From IMG/VR virus record IMGVR_UViG_2880378312_000001: a stretch of DNA of 20,976 nt; one strand, written 5' to 3'. Positions 1 through 11,000 of the stretch are shown piece by piece (position 1 is the stretch's first letter; every line of letters starts with the position of its first letter). The notes beneath the pieces are model-generated. The model was not told the origin of the DNA. It saw only the letters and a program-made list of their open reading frames with translations, and did no database searches. Source of the stretch: a virus. Lineage: Duplodnaviria > Heunggongvirae > Uroviricota > Caudoviricetes. The translations under genes were made by a program, and so were the position numbers.

Positions 1-1314
1 ATGGAAAACAAATGTATTGAAAGTGAGCAAATCTTTTTTGCTAAGATGAACAGGTATAGTTTCAAACTGTCAGATAAGAAATGGCAACTGGATAAAGAAA
101 ACTGCGTATACCCTCATAAAGTTGTAGATAGAATGCCTACAAAAATGAAACTTAGCTACTTAAAAACATTGGCTTACTATGCGTCTGAATATAGTTCTTT
201 TTATATTCAAAGTATTAACAATCTATTTTATGAGTGGTTTGGTGCGATGACTATCGATACTATTGATGACAAAGCAATATATCAATTGAATGTTTATTTA
301 GGTTCAGAAAGAAACTACAAACTAAACTTAATTAAGGCTTTCATCATTAAATGGAAAAATCTCAATTACCCTGGGGTAGAAGCGACTGCCATTAGAATGC
401 TGGAGAAAATAAAAATCATTCCAAACCAAACAGGAGATGCAGTTAAAAGACGAGATCCAAATAAAGGACCTTTAACTGAAGCGGAATTCAATAACATCAT
501 TAACGCCGTTGGAAAATTTTATCATGAGAAGAAAATTCAATGCTTTTTGTATTGTTATATCCTTTTGCTGGCAATAACAGGAAGAAGGCCATTACAATTA
601 ATATCTCTAAAAGCTAAAGATCTCATTAAAAATGAGAGAGGGTGCTTTTTGAATGTACCAAAAGTAAAACAAAGAAAATGTTTCAGAAAAGAATTTAACA
701 TGGTTATGATAGAGCCGTTCTTATATGACAGCTTATCAATGCTAATTAATCAAAATCAGGCGTTTGTTGAAGATAAATTCAGTGTTGGGATTAGTAACTA
801 TAGAGGCGAATTACCAATCTTCATGAATTTAGATAAGATTACGGAAACAAAAAGGATTGAGGATTTTTTATATGATTTAACAACAGATTTTTTCCATATG
901 AAAAATTCAGTTATGTCAAAACTATTAAAACACTTTCCGTCAAAATTCGATGTTAGGTCAGAAAGGACTAACAGCTATATAGAACTTAATGCTAGAAGAT
1001 TCAGATATACGTTAGGAAGTCGACTGGCTAATGAAGGAGCCTCAATTGAGGTGATTGCTAAAGCGTTAGATCATAAATCAGTAAACTCTTCTATAATATA
1101 TATAAAAAATAATCCTGACAACGTTTATGACATCGATAAGAGACTAAGTGCGTTTTTTAACCCCTTATCTAATATACTTATGGGCATAGAGATTGAAGAA
1201 AACAAGAACTTTTTTATCAAGTTTGTTTCAGATGCATTTTTCTTATTGGAAGATACGAAAGAGGATTTGAAATGTTTAACGTGTAAAAAATTCAATCCCT
1301 GGAGAGCATTATGA
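1..1314 (+). CDS. Tyrosine-recombinase-fold protein A (Tn554 TnpA-like position); the window starts at its ATG so the true start may lie upstream
   Basis: Box I-like ITGRRPLQLISLKAKDL and Box II-like RRFRYTLGSRLANEGASIEVIAKALDHKSVNSSIIYI align gap-free to XerD [39 protein letters not shown] (from memory), with Arg, His and Tyr at catalytic positions. Stop overlaps next start (ATGA at 1311-1314). Strongly AT-rich. Confidence 0.6.
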   Translation: MENKCIESEQIFFAKMNRYSFKLSDKKWQLDKENCVYPHKVVDRMPTKMKLSYLKTLAYYASEYSSFYIQSINNLFYEWFGAMTIDTIDDKAIYQLNVYLGSERNYKLNLIKAFIIKWKNLNYPGVEATAIRMLEKIKIIPNQTGDAVKRRDPNKGPLTEAEFNNIINAVGKFYHEKKIQCFLYCYILLLAITGRRPLQLISLKAKDLIKNERGCFLNVPKVKQRKCFRKEFNMVMIEPFLYDSLSMLINQNQAFVEDKFSVGISNYRGELPIFMNLDKITETKRIEDFLYDLTTDFFHMKNSVMSKLLKHFPSKFDVRSERTNSYIELNARRFRYTLGSRLANEGASIEVIAKALDHKSVNSSIIYIKNNPDNVYDIDKRLSAFFNPLSNILMGIEIEENKNFFIKFVSDAFFLLEDTKEDLKCLTCKKFNPWRAL

Positions 1315-2956
1315 ACAATATATTTATTTTTGAACCAAGCAATAAAAACAACCCTCTCGATAATGTTATTAAGTTTATCGAGTTTTGTAAGAGTACTATT
1401 TCTAATAATAATTTAACAACTTCATGGGAAAGCAATAAATGGAAAGGTTTATATAGGTTTACTAAGTTTAACTCAAAAAACAACCTAAACAGCAAGGAGT
1501 GCTTAGATGATAGCTTTATTAATTTTGCTAAAGCATATATGTTGCATGTGCATTCATTCAATAAATCTAAGACGAAACACTCAACATTATCAATGTTGAA
1601 GATTGTCGAATTCGTTTTACTTAAAATCAATATGGAAGCTAATGTAAACTATTGCAACAATTCAATCTATGATGAATGCATAAGGATAGCCTCTGAAAAG
1701 TATTCTAAAGCACATGCATTTGCTATTGGGAAAGAACTTGAGAATTTGAGTTCATTTTTAAATGATAATAGGATGACTAACTCATTTTATTTATTTTGGG
1801 TAAATCCAATTAGGTATAGGATTACTCAGTCTTGGACTGGTTATGATTCTTCACTGGAAGGCCATTCTAGATTGCCTGATATCAAATCAGTTATTGCGAT
1901 TGCTGAGATTTTTTCAAAGCGGGATGAACAATTATCGTCAAGAGATATATTTACTACATCTGTGCTTGCTTTACTTATGTGTGCACCGAGTAGGATATCG
2001 GAAATTTTAGCTTTGCCAGCGGATTGTGAAATCACAGAATGTGATGGAAAGGGCATTCAAAGATACGGTTTAAGATTTTTTTCAGCAAAAGGGTATGAAG
2101 GCAATATAAAATGGATTCCAACTTTAATGATACCTGTAGCTAAAAAGGCTATTAGCAGATTAAAAGAATTATCAAGTCAAGCGAGGTTATTGGCTGCTGA
2201 AATTCAAAAGAATTACTCTAATTCAACGAAGGGAACCCTTAAAGAAAATATACCTCCTGATCTCTTTTGGTATGATAGAGAGAAGAAAATCAAATATTCT
2301 AATGCGCTTTGCTTGTTAACTGAAGGACAGTTAAATCAAAATAAAAAGGAAATGTCAGATAAATTATTCAGACCTACAACGAATTTTTTTAAAACTGATA
2401 TCATTGATTCTGATTATATAAAAGGGTATTTTAATGTTTTTAAAAGACATGGTTATATAAATGAAGATGGTAGCCCATATTTGCTAAGAACACATCAACT
2501 AAGGCATCTTCTCAACACATTTGCTCAAATAAATGGTATGGATGAAATGGTATGGATGAATTTAGTATTGCTCGCTGGTCTGGACGTAAGCTTATTTCTC
2601 AAAATGTTTCTTATGACCACAGATCGCATCTTCAAATGTCTAAAGCAATAAGAGAAAAAAAGTTATCAGTATGTGTTAATGAGCACAGAATAAAGGATAT
2701 TCCAGTAGTGGATCTTAATGAGTTTGACTCACTTAGTAGTGGTGCAGTACTTGTATCAAAACATGGCTACTGCAAGCACTCATATGCGTTTAAGCCGTGT
2801 GATAATTATCCAATTAAGAACTCTGGTTTAGATAACGAAACGATTTCAAATATCCACGATAAAATTTTAAAAAGAACACTGTATGATAAAAATGATGGGA
2901 ACATAAATGCTGATAAATGGTATGAATTCCATAAAAAAATAAAAAAAGGAGAATAA
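1311..2956 (+). pseudogene. Tyrosine-recombinase-fold protein B (Tn554 TnpB-like position), frameshifted by a 14-bp tandem duplication; repaired length about 543 aa
   Basis: ORFs 1311..2651 and 2552..2956 join into one frame if one copy of atggtatggatgaa (2533-2546 / 2547-2560) is removed. The repaired junction reads HQLRHLLNTFAQINGMDEFSIARWSGRKLISQNVSYDH, matching the HxLRH...G...Y..H catalytic spacing of tyrosine recombinases without gaps. Box I-like APSRISEILAL lies upstream. Confidence 0.6.
2533..2560 (+). repeat. Exact 14-bp tandem duplication (atggtatggatgaa x2) inside recombinase B
   Basis: Direct reading of the sequence; 14 is not a multiple of 3, so the frame shifts between Box II and the catalytic Tyr. 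Confidence 0.9.
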
Positions 2957-3355
2957 ATGGCTAAGCATATAAATGGTTATCATGAGAAGAAGATTGTAGA
3001 TGTTATTAACACATGGTCTATAGATGAAAAACTAACCTGGAATGCTTTGTGCGATAGGTTAGTCAGGGTTATTGGGAAAAGACCATCAAGACAATCCTTA
3101 AGTAGTCATGTAAGGATTGCGGAAAGCTTCAATGTGAAAAAAACCACAATCAAATCTGGTGTAATACACACTGTAAAACCTGCTAATTTAAAAGTGGCTT
3201 CTCAACGAATTAAAAGACTTGAAGCAGAAAATGAAGCTTTGAAGGCATTAAATGAACGCTATTTAGAGCAGTTCAAAGTATGGCTTTATAATGCTCACCT
3301 TAAACAAATAACGATTGAAGAACTTAATAATCCGTTACCTGCAAAATACCTTTAA
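2957..3355 (+). CDS. Small coiled-coil protein (132 aa), third gene of the recombinase operon (TnpC-like position)
   Basis: ATG sits directly after the stop of the upstream gene with AAAAAAGGAG RBS. Heptad-like segment IKRLEAENEALKALNERYLEQ. No recognisable catalytic motif. Confidence 0.5.
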   Translation: MAKHINGYHEKKIVDVINTWSIDEKLTWNALCDRLVRVIGKRPSRQSLSSHVRIAESFNVKKTTIKSGVIHTVKPANLKVASQRIKRLEAENEALKALNERYLEQFKVWLYNAHLKQITIEELNNPLPAKYL

Positions 3356-3452
3356 TAAAATTGATAGGTTTTAGCTATTGACATGGTGAAATATTATGTT
3401 ATTTATTTTCTTGTCAGGACGACAAAATTTCACTATTGCAAGGATGCATATT

Positions 3453-3866
3453 ATGGACAAAACAAATATTAACTTAATGGAAAGGTATCTTCTTCTGCTT
3501 GATCGATTCGTTGATAAACTCGCTGAATCAGGTTTCTCAGAGCAACGAATTATCGAACAATCATATCTTTTTTGTGCAGGATTTTATATCAAATACCAGA
3601 GTGGTATAGAAAAAATGACCTTCTCCAACAGGGAGGTTGTTTTAACCTTTCTGCTACTTTCATATTATAGTCATATAAATAAACTGGATGATGATTTGAT
3701 CAACAAAGAGCGTATGAAGCATGTATGTTCTTCATTGATTAACTTTATAGTCAGTAATGGTAGCCGAACAGAGAAAGTCTATGCTAATGAGAAAAGGAAA
3801 TATGAGGCTTCAACTCTAAAAAGAGAATTATCGAAAAAGGATAAAAGGAAAAGATATAGGTTGTAG
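3453..3866 (+). CDS. Hypothetical protein (137 aa) with a highly basic C-terminal tail; alternative upstream starts at 3396 and 3444
   Basis: Long ORF in the AT-rich block with AAGGA 11 nt upstream of ATG 3453. C-terminus KKDKRKRYRL suggests nucleic-acid binding. No recognised family. Confidence 0.4.
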   Translation: MDKTNINLMERYLLLLDRFVDKLAESGFSEQRIIEQSYLFCAGFYIKYQSGIEKMTFSNREVVLTFLLLSYYSHINKLDDDLINKERMKHVCSSLINFIVSNGSRTEKVYANEKRKYEASTLKRELSKKDKRKRYRL

Positions 3867-4261
3867 TGTTTGTATGATTTTCATTAGACTTACTTAATCT
3901 ATAGTCTAAATTTTAATATTAGATTCGTAAATCTATAATTCCATGAATCTAATTAATGCTTAAAAGCATCCTCTAAGATGCTTTTACTGTTACCATGCAT
4001 ACATACCCAGAACCTTTAACAAACGATAATAGAGGGGAGTTGTGTATAACAACTCCCTGACCTTACTAAGGTTAGCGATGTTATTCAGCATCATTCTGTC
4101 AAAGATTTAATTTCTTTGAAAAATACTAATTCTACCCCTTAAGTTAATAACTTCTGCTTGATCGTGTATTTTGGTAAGTTGGAGTACAATTTTTTGATTG
4201 GATCGTCAATAAGAAAAAGCTAGAATCCTTAGAAGGACATAGATTTTCATAGGGTTAAGAT

Positions 4262-5500
<1,239 letters not shown>

Positions 5501-5514
5501 TTTATGTTTCTGTA

Positions 5515-5548
5515 AAAAGCCCGTAGGTATCAACTGCGGGCTAAATTT
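5515..5548. terminator. Hairpin between convergent genes; probable intrinsic terminator, better U-tract on the minus strand
   Basis: Stem agcccgtag / ctgcgggct (9 bp with one G-U) around a 7-nt loop; on the minus strand it is followed by TTTTTAC. Confidence 0.4.
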
Positions 5549-5575
5549 TCCCTTGATGCTGGTTTTGTCTTTTAT

Positions 5576-5971
5576 CTAAAAAATGCCAGTCTTCACGTTG
5601 CTTGTTCCAGCATTAAAGATGTATGTGCTGACTTTTTCGCCTTTGAAAGAAACTGTCAGAGATTTAGTTTGTGAGTCTGCGCCACCTGCAAGCAGTCCCA
5701 CAACGGGGATGAAAGAGGTTGCTTTGGACTGGCTGTTATACATAGTGTATGACCATTGTTCTTCACCATCGATCAAAGAACGGCTGTCAGGTTCACCGAA
5801 CGATGCTAACACGTCCTGTTTTGTAGTTTTGCCTTTAACAATTTTGGTTTTCACACTTTCCTGCGTCTCATTTTTCAATGACTGGTTGCCTACTGAAGAA
5901 CAACCTGCCAAGGTCAGAAAAACGAATCTATATGAGAGTTTTTTGTACCTGAGACTAAATCGCCCTCCCAA
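5576..5971 (-). CDS. Putative lipoprotein whose native 5' end is replaced by IS30-derived sequence; ORF-track start at 5971 is a TTG inside the IS30 remnant
   Basis: Lipobox FLTLAGC-SS then a hydrophilic mature region. Sequence above about 5927 belongs to IS30, so the first ~14 codons of the ORF are IS30-derived. Confidence 0.4.
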   Translation of the reverse strand: MGGRFSLRYKKLSYRFVFLTLAGCSSVGNQSLKNETQESVKTKIVKGKTTKQDVLASFGEPDSRSLIDGEEQWSYTMYNSQSKATSFIPVVGLLAGGADSQTKSLTVSFKGEKVSTYIFNAGTSNVKTGIF

Positions 5972-6669
5972 TGCCCTAGAGAGCGTCTGTTATCGATATT
6001 TCGGGAACGTTCGTGAATTGGTGTTCCGTTCACTATGTTAATCGTACCTCTTTCGCCTTTGCGGGTATGACGCCTGCCATGGCGAAGGCTATGCGACCGT
6101 CGCAGATGCTGTATATTCAGGTGGTGTAGCGCTTCACGGCTACGAAAGTACAGCGTTTTATAAATTGTCTCAGGTGATATTCGCAGCGTTTTTTGACGTG
6201 GTTTTGTTCGCCTTAACCATCCTGATATTTGCTCTGGAGACCATTTCATCTCCAGCTTTTCCAGAACAAGCTTTCGCAATGGTAAATTTTGATCCAGTAA
6301 GCACGGTTTTGGCCTTTTCGCCATTCTGTTGGCTCGGTTATTAGCATCAACAGCTTTGTAATAGCGTCTGCCCCGATTACGCTGAACTTCACGTGAGATC
6401 GTCGAAGGACTGCGATTCAGCGCAGTAGCTATCGCACGAATGCTCATTTTGGCTGACAAACCAGCTCGTATCTCCTCGCGCTCAGACAGTGTCAGGTGAG
6501 CTACAGCCCGCTTACGCTCATGGGGTTTTATGCCGCCAGTATCCCTTAACATAGTGAAGATCGTTCCGGGTTTTGAACCCAGGATATTCGCTATTTCACT
6601 GAAGCCTGTTCCGTTCTTCCATAGTTCAAAAACAGAGGCTTTTTCCTCTGCTGTAAATGTTCGTCTCAT
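5914..6669 (-). pseudogene. insI: IS30 transposase, C-terminally truncated (about 247 of 383 aa retained)
   Basis: N-terminal HTH region and start of the DDE domain recognised from memory; premature stop after junction-derived residues DSFF. Confidence 0.8.
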
Positions 6670-6731
6670 TCAAAAAACCTCCGCAACCCCATGTTTTCAC
6701 ATAACTGTTGCGTTGACCAATTGAATCTACA
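5927..6731 (-). mobile_element. IS30 remnant: left inverted repeat plus about the first 247 codons of the transposase; 3' third missing
   Basis: Reverse complement of 6717-6731 is TGTAGATTCAATTGG, the IS30 terminus as I recall it. Transposase ORF matches IS30 InsI from MRRTFTAEEKASVFELWKNG through DLVSGTKNSHI, then diverges (DSFF-stop). Confidence 0.8.
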
Positions 6732-6998: not shown

Positions 6999-7565
6999 AT
7001 GGCTAAACCAGCGCGAAGACGATGTAACCGTAAAAGAGAAGATTTAACTGTTAAAAGGATATTTGAGTTACTAAGTTTCGATAAATCTACCGGGGTATTT
7101 AGATGGAAAGTTCCCACTCAGGGAAGGATAGCATTAAATAGTGTTGCTGGAGCTTTTGATTCCAACGGTTATTCAATGATCATGATAGATGGGCGTAGAT
7201 ATAAAACTCACGTCTTAGTTTTTTACATAACTCATAATCGTTGGCCTGCTGGTCAAATTGACCACGTTAATGGAATTAGGACCGACAATAGGCCAGAAAA
7301 TTTAAGAGAATGCCTGCCAATAGAAAATTCAAGAAATATAAGGATCCGAAAGAATAGCAAATCAGGTTGCAGAGGGGTTACTTGGCACAAACGACAGAAA
7401 AAATGGAATGTTAGGCTAGGATTCCATGGCAAGAGTAAACACTTCGGATGCTTTGATGATCTGGAGTTAGCGGTACTAGTTGCTGAAGAAGCCCGAGATA
7501 AGTATTACGGTGATTTTTCCGGCAACGAAAGGAGCACTTATGCGAATCTATCGAAGGAAATGTAA
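6999..7565 (+). CDS. HNH endonuclease with AP2-type DNA-binding domain (homing-endonuclease-like); start taken at MAKPARRRC
   Basis: HNH motif [18 protein letters not shown]2-like segment [48 protein letters not shown] before ATG 6999. First nine residues match the N-terminus of lambda NinG as I recall it. Confidence 0.65.
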
Positions 7566-8151
7566 ATGTTGCAATGAATGGTTTATACCAAAATATCAAA
7601 ATCAATATTGGTGTAATGAGATTTGTGGAACCAAGATAGCACTCGAACGACGAAGTAAAGAACGCGAAAAAGCGGAAAAGGCAGAAAAGGCAGCAGAGAA
7701 GAAACGACGACGAGAGGAGCAGAAACAGAAAGATAAACTTAAGATTCAAAAACTCGCCTTAAAGCCCCGCAGTTACTGGATTAAACAAGCCCAACAAGCC
7801 GTACACGCCTTCATCAGAGAAAGAGACCGCGACTTACCATGTATCTCGTGCGGAACGCTCACGTCTGCTCAGTGGGATGCCGGACATTACCGGACAACTG
7901 CTGCGGCACCTCAACTCCGATTTGATGAACGCAATATTCACAAGCAATGCGTGGTGTGCAACCAGCACAAAAGCGGAAATCTCGTTCCGTATCGCGTCGA
8001 ACTGATTAGCCGCATCGGGCAGGAAGCAGTAGAGGAAATCGAATCAAACCATAACCGCTATCGCTGGACTGTCGAAGAGTGCAGGGCCATCAAGGCGGAG
8101 TATCAACAGAAACTTAAAAAACTGCGAAACAGCAGAAGTGAGGTTGCATGA
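7540..8151 (+). CDS. ninG: NinG/Rap-like recombination protein
   Basis: Cys-rich N-terminus, [23 protein letters not shown] basic stretch and C-terminal region match lambda NinG from memory. AAAGGAG RBS before ATG 7540. Overlaps the upstream HNH gene by 26 bp. Confidence 0.7.
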
Positions 8152-8813
8152 ATATCTACGAAAGAATTGATGGCAGCAAATACCGAAATATTTGGGTAGT
8201 TGGCGATCTGCACGGATGCTACACGAACCTGATGAAAAAACTGGAGACGATAGGATTCGACACCAAAAAAGACCTGCTTATCTCGGTGGGCGATTTGGTT
8301 GATCGCGGTACAGAGAACGTAGAATGCCTGGAATTAATCACATTCCCCTGGTTCAGAGCTGTACGTGGAAACCATGAGCAAATGATGATTGATGGCTTAT
8401 CAGAGCGTGGAAACGTCAATCACTGGCTGCTTAATGGCGGTGGCTGGTTCTTTAATCTCGATTACGACAAAGAAATTCTGGCTAAAGCTCTTGCCCATAA
8501 AGCAGATGAACTTCCGTTAATCATCGAACTGGTGAGTAAAGGAAAAAAATATGTCATCTGCCACGCCGATTATCCTTGTGATAAATACGAGTTTGGAAAG
8601 CCAGTTGATCATCAGCAGGTAATCTGGAACCGCGAACGAATCAGCAACTCACAAGACGGGATCGTGAAAGAAATCAAAGGCGCGGACACGTTCATCTTTG
8701 GTCATACGCCAGCAGTGAAACCACTCAAATTTGCCAACCAGATGTATATCGATACTGGCGCAGTGTTCTGCGGAAACCTCACATTGATTCAGGTACAGGG
8801 AGAAGGCGCATGA
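8148..8813 (+). CDS. PPP-family Ser/Thr protein phosphatase (lambda NinI/ORF221-like)
   Basis: Signature motifs GDLHG, GDLVDRG and GNHE in canonical order; ATGA overlap with ninG stop. Confidence 0.85.
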
Positions 8814-9433
8814 GACTCGAAAGCGTAGCTAAATTTCATTCGCCAAAAAGCCCGATGATGAGCGACTCACCACGGGCCACGGCTTCTGACTCTCTTTCCG
8901 GTACTGATGTGATGGCTGCTATGGGGATGGCGCAATCACAAGCCGGATTCGGAATGGCTGTATTCTGTGGTAAGCACGAACTCAGCCAGAACGACAAACA
9001 AAAGGCTATCAACTATCTGATGCAATTTGCACACAAGGTATCGGGGAAATACCGTGGCGTGGCAAAGCTTGAAGGAAATACTAAGGCAAAGGTACTGCAA
9101 GTGCTCGCAACATTCGCTTATGCGGATTATTGCCGTAGTGCCGCTACGCCGGGCGCAAGATGCAGAGATTGCCACGGTACAGGCCGTGCGGTTGATATAG
9201 CCAAAACAGAGCAGTGGGGGATAGTTGCTGAGAAAGAGTGCGGAAGATGTAAAGGCGTCGGTTATTCAAGAATGCCAGCAAGCGCCGCATATCGCGCTGT
9301 GACGATGCTAATCCCAAACCTTACCCAACCCACCTGGTCACGCACTGTTAAGCCGCTGTATGACGCTCTGGTTGTGCAATGCCACAAGGAAGAGTCAATC
9401 GCAGACAACATTTTGAATGCGATCACACGTTAG
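8810..9433 (+). CDS. Q: Late-gene antiterminator Q, lambda type
   Basis: 207 aa; matches lambda Q from memory ([28 protein letters not shown]..., zinc-binding CRDCHGTG...CGRCKG). Followed by a lambda-like late promoter. Confidence 0.75.
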
Positions 9434-9475
9434 CGCCATGATTGCCACGGATGGCAACATATTAACGGCATAATA

Positions 9476-9520
9476 TTGACTTTTTGAATAACTTTGGGGA
9501 AACTTGACACCAATAATGGG
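9476..9520 (+). promoter_or_regulatory. Late promoter with Q-utilisation site (lambda pR-prime / qut type)
   Basis: ATATTGACTTTTTGAATAACTTTGGGGAAACTTGACACCAATAATGGGCG parallels the lambda pR-prime/qut region as I recall it (TTGACT -35, conserved downstream block); sits 43 bp after Q. Confidence 0.6.
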
Positions 9521-9712
9521 CGTTTTTTACATGTCATTGATGAGTCTCAATAACCTGCCGCCGAGTAGTTTTTATGCTCTGAATTGTATTTGTGTAGTAA
9601 ACATGCTGACTGCAATGTAATAGAGTTTTTTTAGCCTGTAACCTCTTGACGGCATTGAATTGCTTTTGTTATGAGTTGTAAGCCAATGTTATCATCTTGT
9701 ATTGGGGTGGTT

Positions 9713-10429
9713 ATGAAGGATGGTGCGCTGCTCAGGAGTTCTTCACTTTTTATTGCCTACATGGGATGCCTTGGATGGGGGAGTGCTTATTTCTATGGAT
9801 GGGGTACTTCTTTTTACTACGGCTTCCCATGGTGGATTGTAGGTGCAGGTGTTGATGATGTTGCCAGAAGTTTATTTTTTGCAGTTATCGTCATTGCTAT
9901 ATTTCTTATCGGTTGGGGTATTGGTGTTGTATTCTTTTTCGCAGTGAAAAGAAAACATTCTATGCAAGAGCTAAATGTATTTCGCCTTTATTTTGCTGTG
10001 GAATTATTGTTTGTGCCGGCAATTATTGAGTTTTCTATATTGAGACAGAAGATTCAGGTACCTCTTTTGCTACTGTCAGCAGCGATTGCGCTGGCGGTCA
10101 CAATTTCGATAAGATCTTATGGGCGATTTTTATCGGTATCATGCTTCTATGATAAGCCATTTATAAAAAAACATTTTTTTGAGATTGTGATGATTGCTTT
10201 TGTGGCATATTTCTGGCTTTTTTCATTTCTGACAGGATATTACAAACCGCAGTTTAAGAAAGAATATGAAATGATTAATTATAATGATGGTTGGTATTAT
10301 GTTCTTGCTCGTTATGATAATTGTCTGGTTTTGTCTACTTCTTTCAATGCAGGTAGTAAAAGGTTTGTGATTTATCAATCAGCACAAGATAAGAATCTTC
10401 AGGTTGATATTGTAAGGACCAGAATTTAA
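9713..10429 (+). CDS. Multi-pass membrane protein of unknown function (moron downstream of the late promoter); ORF-track start 9671, ATG 9713 preferred
   Basis: Several hydrophobic segments rich in W/Y/G/F (GWGSAYFYGWGTSFYYGFPWWIVGAG; VIVIAIFLIGWGIGVVFFFAV; LLLLSAAIALAVTISI). Lower GC than flanking phage genes. Confidence 0.5.
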   Translation: MKDGALLRSSSLFIAYMGCLGWGSAYFYGWGTSFYYGFPWWIVGAGVDDVARSLFFAVIVIAIFLIGWGIGVVFFFAVKRKHSMQELNVFRLYFAVELLFVPAIIEFSILRQKIQVPLLLLSAAIALAVTISIRSYGRFLSVSCFYDKPFIKKHFFEIVMIAFVAYFWLFSFLTGYYKPQFKKEYEMINYNDGWYYVLARYDNCLVLSTSFNAGSKRFVIYQSAQDKNLQVDIVRTRI

Positions 10430-10847
10430 TTGGCTGCATAAATAATATTTTAAGTTGCAAGTTGGCTATTCGTAGGAATAGAACCTTAGGCATGCTGAAT
10501 GCGTTTTCTGAACATTGTTTTATAAACTGTGTCTGCTTGCTGTTGTGATCCTGCTTTTAGTGATGGTGATGATGGATTTCACCAGCAGGATAATGTTGGT
10601 ACTGACTGATGGCGCTCTGGTCTGCGGCATTGTGGTATTGCTGTGGCCGGTGATAAAAAGAAACAGCCTGCATAATGCTTGATTTTTTTGTTTACTGTTT
10701 ATTAAAAATACTACTGCATGGTGAATCCCCCTGTGCGGAGGGGCAATCAGCAACCAGGTATATGTGATAATCGCGGATTCAGGTGCTGATACTGAATTCA
10801 CCGGGAGGCACCCGGCACCATGCAAGAAAAAGAATGTGCATGCAAAC

Positions 10848-10876
10848 ATGCCCCTCTCCGGAGGGGCATTTTTTAT
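10848..10876. terminator. Strong intrinsic terminator hairpin
   Basis: Perfect stem atgcccctc / gaggggcat around loop tccg, followed by TTTTTT on the plus strand. Confidence 0.65.
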
Positions 10877-11000
10877 GGGTAAAAAATGCCCGAATGGGTT
10901 CGGGCAATAGCATGAGATACTGATATTGTTGTGTTGTTATCGTGTGGATTTTAACCAGGGTTTATCAGGCTGCGCAACTGCGTGGCCTTTTTTCATTTCT

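Follow-up and report, generated by a model that had tools for sequence, protein, structure and literature searches.

The gene at positions 9713-10429 (+ strand) of the window, the whole 20,976 bp stretch of DNA analysed here, encodes a 238 aa protein of the TfpB family (PF27470 / PHROG 1521) that is predicted to reside in the inner membrane. It is best explained, with a probability of about one half, as a moron of this family specifying a lysogenic-conversion envelope protein that is expressed from its own promoter and is neither a lysis protein nor a virion protein. Within this reading, confidence is high as to what the gene is and low as to what it does. The gene is not a new entity: RefSeq, the phage 434 record, PHROG and Pfam all list it already.

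The sequence of the window recurs with 100% identity in E. coli O157:H7 chromosomes, and its gene order was taken from the annotation of the identical records. It includes a decayed lambdoid prophage that adjoins ssrA, with the tmRNA located at 19917-20279. A low-GC block with tyrosine recombinase genes, a partial IS30, an HNH gene, ninG, a phosphatase gene and the antiterminator gene Q are followed by the gene under study, a DUF3927 gene, a SASA-family esterase gene, a class II holin gene and a YdfR-family gene, and these in turn by an endolysin gene truncated by IS66, tail-fibre fragments, espW, espM2, nleG-like genes, dinI, ssrA and smpB. The espW, espM2 and nleG-like genes are T3SS effector genes. 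In the annotation of the window, no early region is present upstream of the nin genes, where the HNH gene and the partial IS30 are found instead, and no head genes are annotated, the tail-fibre fragments being the only virion genes left. As the early region is missing and the endolysin gene is cut by IS66 after 219 nt, the prophage is a remnant that is not inducible on its own.

Two further features of the left part of the window were observed. The HNH endonuclease gene (6999-7565), the product of which has a weak AP2-domain match, heads the nin region directly after the partial IS30. To the left of the remnant, positions 1-5500 are ~30% GC and carry consecutive tyrosine recombinase genes, a gene annotated as 'DNA-binding protein' and hypothetical genes; in EDL933, two recombinase genes in tandem and then a DNA-binding gene lie at the left of the remnant. 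This block looks like a separate integrative element.

The ORF ends with a stop at 10429 (+ strand), and its longest form, starting at 9671, would encode 252 aa, while the start used in RefSeq is at 9686 (WP_001302581.1, 247 aa). The start at 9713 is preceded by a Shine-Dalgarno-like GGGGTGG run and gives a product of 238 aa, most full-length homologues being 237-238 aa long. A chance ORF was rejected, as judged by dN/dS values of 0.05-0.18 in comparisons with nine homologues (Nei-Gojobori) and by the existence of more than 100 homologous clusters; the ORF is a genuine gene that evolves under purifying selection. About 300 complete genomes and phage 434 carry it in intact form with 100% identity. 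Its GC content is 0.365, as compared with 0.508 for Q and 0.552 for the esterase gene, and its GC3 is 0.31, as compared with 0.50 and 0.60 for the flanking genes. The lower GC content than that of the phage neighbours (36.5% versus 51-55%), pointed out in the initial annotation, was therefore confirmed.

No family had been recognised for the product in that annotation. However, the 252 aa form matches phrog_1521 over residues 31-252 with an E value of 2.1e-154, a full-length family match, and PF27470 'TfpB' is the precomputed label for the identical protein and for all homologues. The product is also 100% identical at the amino acid level to CPT_434_68, annotated as 'putative membrane protein' in phage 434 (OL657226), and a copy in phage 2B8 is 98% identical and lies in the same gene order. 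PHROG 1521 and PF27470 are both catalogued as families of unknown function. No match was obtained in a Pfam scan with a model set that does not include PF27470, nor in an NCBIfam scan; the PADLOC scan gave no family at E <= 1, and a sequence profile search of the PDB returned only noise. Across Pfam, PHROG, PADLOC, PDB and BFVD, no match to known phage lysis or structural proteins was found, in keeping with the original description of the gene as a moron. Literature retrieved for 'TfpB' or PF27470 consisted only of chemistry, anaesthesia and type IV pilus papers, none of them on the family. The Pfam name presumably goes back to tfpB, an ORF of the pilin-inversion region of Moraxella.

The protein had been described as multi-pass and as rich in aromatic and glycine residues. 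Five transmembrane (TM) helices are indeed predicted, and F, Y and W together make up 21.0% of the residues; glycine is not enriched overall (6.7%) and is abundant only within residues 16-45, where 7 glycine and 12 aromatic residues are found among 30 positions. In the structural model of the protein, five TM helices are followed by five strands (pLDDT 73, pTM 0.66). A first AF2 model, built with 22 sequences, had a pLDDT of only 60, and confidence in the predicted fold, and in the predicted location of the C-terminal domain in the periplasm, is for this reason moderate. Mean K+R counts are 3.9 and 3.2 in loops 2 and 4, and 1.0 and 0.9 in loops 1 and 3, and the predicted topology is one of five TM helices with the N-terminus inside.

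Among 22 homologues sharing 39-68% identity, 39 alignment columns are invariant and are clustered in an N-terminal block (SSxFIAYMGCLGWGSAYFYGWGxSFYYGFPWW...DDVARSLF) and a C-terminal block (YKPQFKKEYEMI..WYYVLARYD..LILSKSF..RF), while the middle helices vary. The two most conserved elements of the protein, both predicted to face the periplasm, are the GWGSAYFYGWGxSFYYGFPWW motif at the outer end of TM1 and in loop 1, and the C-terminal beta domain of roughly 55 residues. The signature of the latter, YKPQ..WYYVLARYD..LILSKSF, is present in the protein studied here, as the architecture of the family demands. TM1 also carries a GxxxAxxxG-type motif. No fold relatives were found in the PDB or in BFVD.

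The gene is located between that for a lambda-type antiterminator Q (8810-9433, + strand; PF03589, E 4e-58) and a group of + strand genes comprising one for a DUF3927 / TciB-like small membrane protein (10515-10682; PF13064, E 1.4e-13; phrog_1470), a co-resident cargo gene, one for a NanS-p-like SASA-family esterase with DUF1737, SASA and DUF6645 domains (11090-12943), and one for a P21-type class II holin (13093-13308; PF04971, E 3.5e-32), with which the truncated lysis cassette begins. Stx1a phages encode an esterase that shares 98.9% identity with this one. In an annotated Stx2a phage, the order is NinG, Q, tRNAs, stx2A, stx2B, SASA esterase and holin, and in the window it is Q, the gene under study, tciB, sRNAs, SASA esterase and holin. 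This comparison upholds the earlier proposal that the gene occupies the stx slot, between a lambda-type Q/pR' and the esterase and holin genes. No tRNA genes are present at the slot, and an interpretation as tRNA-linked cargo was thus rejected.

Between Q and S, lambda has only orf-64. An interval that is empty or differently filled in lambda and in the Stx2a phage therefore holds tfpB-tciB in the window and in phage 434, and the base composition of the gene differs from that of its flanks, as would be expected for a moron; a terminator-like structure directly after the gene, a further mark of morons, was not found at 10425-10515 (z -0.1). The pairing with tciB is seen in phage 434, E. albertii and the O157 contig L009 and is absent from the ETEC, Shigella and Salmonella contexts, the DUF3927/TciB gene accompanying the family only in contexts of phage type.

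Like stx and other cargo of the Q-to-S interval, the gene lies in this slot with an AgvB/AsxR-type sRNA locus alongside. However, it is unrelated to stx, specifying a membrane protein instead of a secreted AB5 toxin, and it has no tRNA genes and a candidate promoter of its own. The lambda Bor and Lom proteins are likewise products of prophage cargo, with presumed expression in the lysogen and a presumed action in the envelope, and family members in the iro island and in phage 434 have a bor/iss homologue nearby. Nevertheless, Bor is a lipoprotein and Lom an outer-membrane barrel, whereas the protein studied here is a predicted inner-membrane protein with five TM helices and no sequence or fold similarity to either. 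The closest counterpart is the phage 434 locus, in which a late promoter and terminator, the gene, TciB, SASA esterase and pinholin are found in the same order. In phage 434, they follow a Q82-like antiterminator gene and the upstream terminator is intact, whereas the window has a lambda-type Q/pR' and a decayed terminator.

The segment from 8800 to 9508, which covers Q and pR', shares 96% DNA identity with lambda. A pR'-like late promoter at 9476-9504 (+ strand; TTGACT, 17-nt spacer, GAAACT) can be aligned base for base with lambda pR'; the -35 element, the spacing and the Q-binding region are kept, but the -10 element is weaker than the TAAATT of lambda. It is followed at 9505-9520 (+ strand) by a lambda-like initial transcribed region with a -10-like AATAAT element, a candidate qut/pause site, which we take to be a pause site from what is known of lambda pR'. 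Homology to lambda ends near 9510 and the phage 434 module runs from 9552 onward, the lambda-type Q/pR' thus being joined to the 434 module near 9510-9550.

At 9555-9573 (+ strand) lies a decayed copy of the phage 434 intrinsic terminator, and the terminator scan detected nothing there. In phage 434, the terminator consists of AAACCCGCUGCCGAGUGGGU followed by U8 (-13.3 kcal/mol, z -3.4; positions 4380-4405 of L002, the 434 record), as compared with a 4-bp stem followed by U5 in the window (-5.1 kcal/mol, z -0.43), which is no better than shuffled sequence. The decay is due to two stem substitutions and a 4-nt deletion. This tR'-type terminator is intact in phage 434 and E. albertii. As judged by its sequence, the upstream terminator in phage 434 would make the gene Q-dependent. 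Given its decay in the O157 remnant, any pR' activity there would enter tfpB-tciB without Q.

Downstream of the terminator copy, a candidate sigma-70 promoter of the gene itself was identified at 9646-9675 (+ strand), with TTGACG as the -35 element (9646-9651), an 18-nt spacer that includes a TGn element, and TATGAG as an imperfect -10 element (TGn and TATGAG at 9667-9675). The block CTCTTGACGGCATTGAATTGCTTTTGTTATGAG is kept in phage 434, E. albertii, the ETEC LT plasmid and the iro island and is found in a weaker form in C. rodentium, and DNA homology to the ETEC and iro loci starts just upstream of the -35 element. A consensus promoter scan chose another, less conserved site at 9666-9695. 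The conservation of the block suggests that it is a promoter that moves with the gene.

The initial annotation had further assumed that the gene would be expressed on prophage induction. This is doubtful for the copy in the window, given that the prophage is a remnant, that the upstream terminator is decayed and that the promoter-like block is present, and expression on induction only is also at odds with the transcription of the Salmonella homologue from its own promoter. A second Q/pR' of the same type lies elsewhere in O157 genomes, and trans-activation by another prophage is thus conceivable.

An STnc100-family sRNA is encoded at 10690-10880 (+ strand; Rfam RF02076, 144.7 bits versus a gathering score of 47), and the first strong + strand terminator after the gene, at 10848-10875 (-18.4 kcal/mol), is therefore the end of this sRNA gene. 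The AgvB (anti-GcvB) prophage sRNA is encoded on the opposite strand at 10881-10942 (Rfam RF02702, 96.5 bits versus a gathering score of 56), a site that the AsxR 'anti-stx2' model also matches below its threshold, and a second intrinsic terminator is located at 10967-10994 (+ strand; -14.9 kcal/mol, z -4.2), ahead of the esterase gene. ECs3499 was considered as the Sakai locus tag of the gene and rejected, since it is a minus-strand ORF at 10520-10849 that lies over the sRNA region. A study of SNPs and epithelial adherence in O157 lists two non-synonymous SNPs in ECs3499, L33S and I50T (PMC4613885). Codons 33 (TTG) and 50 (ATA) of the minus-strand ORF fit SNPs at window positions 10701 and 10752; as both lie inside the STnc100-like sRNA, on the opposite strand, the apparent changes in the ECs3499 'protein' may be changes in the sRNA.

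Only 73 representatives of the family were found in an exhaustive profile search. Distant members, with 12-29% identity, retain weak versions of both conserved blocks and occur in Neisseria, Actinobacillus, Gallibacterium, Avibacterium and Pasteurella; no conserved partner gene was found across their contexts. A genome scan with the alignment of the closer homologues revealed six loci, the closer non-phage homologues being 46-68% identical to the protein. In ETEC plasmids, an intact family member is divergent from eltAB (59% identity). In Shigella, an intact member is present among IS elements on 106 invasion plasmids (pINV; 57% identity). Intact members are further found divergent from sseJ in Salmonella (STM1630, 46% identity), next to lpxR at a syntenic site in C. 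rodentium (66% identity), between iroBC and a bor/iss remnant in E. coli (57% identity), and between rpoH and mqo in H. ducreyi. Members of the family have moved between phages, plasmids and chromosomal islets of animal-associated Proteobacteria, in every case as a stand-alone gene.

Several of these loci were noted for their surroundings. In the ETEC plasmids and contigs L005-L008, the gene is at 5001-5714 and eltAB at 2987-4134, about 870 bp separating the gene from eltA, and the family protein of the LT locus is listed in 1285 blocks of the collection. An LT-II-like slot as the source of the eltAB adjacency was rejected, since the toxin genes of LT-II prophages lie after the lysozyme gene and not in the Q-to-lysis slot (PMC3252337). 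In Shigella flexneri pWR501 (L027), the family member at 6001-6717 is followed about 540 bp downstream by a 138-aa ORF (7257-7673), the product of which would be rich in cysteines and begin with a hydrophobic stretch resembling a signal peptide, and for which Pfam gave no match. In C. rodentium (L015), lpxR, split into two ORFs (4863-5823), is immediately divergent from the family member, and in the phage 434 record lpxR, a lipid A deacylase gene (2208-3167), lies about 1.3 kb upstream of the family member. The lpxR-tfpB association may thus be a recurring one.

The only family member with experimental data is STM1630 (SL1560), a 717 bp gene for a 'putative membrane protein' that adjoins sseJ. 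Its size, its sseJ neighbour and a deletion primer that encodes NSSMLLAYLGGLGWG identify it as the Salmonella family member. Like the gene in the window, it encodes a protein of 238 aa with the same motifs and is AT-rich and horizontally acquired; unlike the latter, it is chromosomal and outside a prophage, and differs in its upstream region, in which the promoter lies about 220 nt ahead of the start codon. The S1 Text of PMC6785131 gives the function of STM1630 as unknown and the gene as H-NS bound, and takes the binding of H-NS to explain the apparent 'essentiality' of the gene in transposon screens. According to the same text, a mapped promoter of its own drives expression of STM1630 in SPI-2-inducing medium and in macrophages, two SNPs having inactivated this promoter in ST313, and a clean deletion in strain 4/74 led to an increase, not a decrease, in intramacrophage replication (PMC6785131). 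Transposon mutants were attenuated in calves and chickens (Morgan 2004, as cited in the S1 Text of PMC6785131), which could be due to a polar effect on sseJ or steB. An STM1630 mutant was hypermotile in one screen and was not among the mutants reported as altered in a clean-deletion follow-up. The phenotypes of STM1630 are therefore weak or inconsistent.

Taken as a lysogenic-conversion gene, the ORF would represent TfpB-family cargo encoding a polytopic inner-membrane protein and inserted in the Q-to-lysis interval of lambdoid phages. Transcription would start at its own AT-rich sigma-70 promoter of the H-NS type, and in an intact phage such as 434, read-through from pR', antiterminated by Q, would add expression late in infection. 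The product would serve the lysogen in the cell envelope, and not virion assembly or lysis, a lysis or structural role being argued against by the retention of the family where no lysis genes exist. The periplasmic aromatic face would most likely bind an envelope or periplasmic ligand, and the net effect would be a change of the envelope that depends on host conditions and matters in colonisation, for which STM1630 provides a hint. The co-location with virulence genes may reflect hitch-hiking in AT-rich acquired DNA.

More broadly, and only as a tentative proposal, the TfpB family might form an unrecognised class of phage-spread inner-membrane lysogenic-conversion factors, induced by host signals, that alter the envelope and colonisation via the aromatic periplasmic face. 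Such a role would explain the intact copies beside virulence loci in EHEC, ETEC, Shigella pINV, Salmonella, C. rodentium, the iro islands of ExPEC, Pasteurellaceae and Neisseria.

The main rival explanation is that the protein acts in superinfection exclusion or another form of anti-phage defence, its periplasmic face blocking the entry of phage DNA or the protein triggering abortive infection. A stand-alone prophage membrane protein with conserved elements predicted to face the periplasm would suit this role, as would the spread of the family on phages, plasmids and islets with no partner genes, and the PHROG of the neighbouring tciB is described as 'inhibition of cell division or resistance to colicin'. 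However, no defence match was found in PADLOC, Pfam or PHROG, and purifying selection is strong with the exposed parts most conserved, unlike what is seen in an arms-race protein. The fixed chromosomal positions in Salmonella, Citrobacter and H. ducreyi also speak against defence, as does the expression of the Salmonella homologue in SPI-2-inducing medium and inside macrophages reported in PMC6785131, and we consider this explanation unlikely.

Alternatively, the family may be functional elsewhere and the copy in the O157 remnant may be silent baggage, neither expressed nor selected. The heavily decayed, IS-riddled state of the prophage, the weakened -10 element of pR' and the AT-rich DNA, as in the H-NS-bound Salmonella homologue, are consistent with silence. 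Yet the ORF has remained intact and identical in the about 300 complete genomes and phage 434, the promoter-like block is intact, and the second Q/pR' copy in O157 could act in trans, which makes silence rather improbable.

A function late in the phage cycle, with expression via the Q-antiterminated pR' and a contribution to lysis or to the release of progeny or toxin, is even harder to sustain. The protein might modulate the lysis timing of a pinholin/SAR-endolysin cassette or form a glycine-zipper channel, and the location of the gene downstream of pR' and ahead of the holin gene, the strong terminator between the gene and the late promoter in phage 434, as in Q-dependent genes, and the GxxxAxxxG-type motif in TM1 all fit such an assignment. 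Against it, homologues are intact at loci without lysis genes (pINV, ETEC plasmids, Salmonella sseJ and H. ducreyi), no holin, antiholin or spanin family was matched in Pfam or PHROG, a separate holin gene is present, the promoter-like block travels with the gene, and lambda does without the gene in its Q-S interval. A role as a holin or other lysis protein was hence rejected. Least probable is a dedicated accessory of the adjacent toxins or effectors, for example in periplasmic handling or release of AB5 toxins, whereby the position would be functional and not historical: the gene is immediately divergent from eltAB in ETEC and from sseJ in Salmonella and occupies the stx slot in O157, but the neighbouring virulence gene changes from each context to the next (it is that for LT, for a T3SS effector or for a lipid A deacylase, a siderophore cluster, or none), and neither phage 434 nor the window includes a toxin gene.

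What stands out is that a strongly conserved membrane protein is encoded in the stx slot of 434, a classic laboratory phage, and that at least five enteric pathogens have kept intact copies of the gene within virulence loci that are decayed and full of IS elements. The decayed terminator provides a concrete case in which a Q-dependent late cargo gene could turn Q-independent in a prophage remnant. K-12 lysogens of phage 434 offer an easy genetic system for the family, including STM1630 and the neighbour of the LT operon in ETEC.
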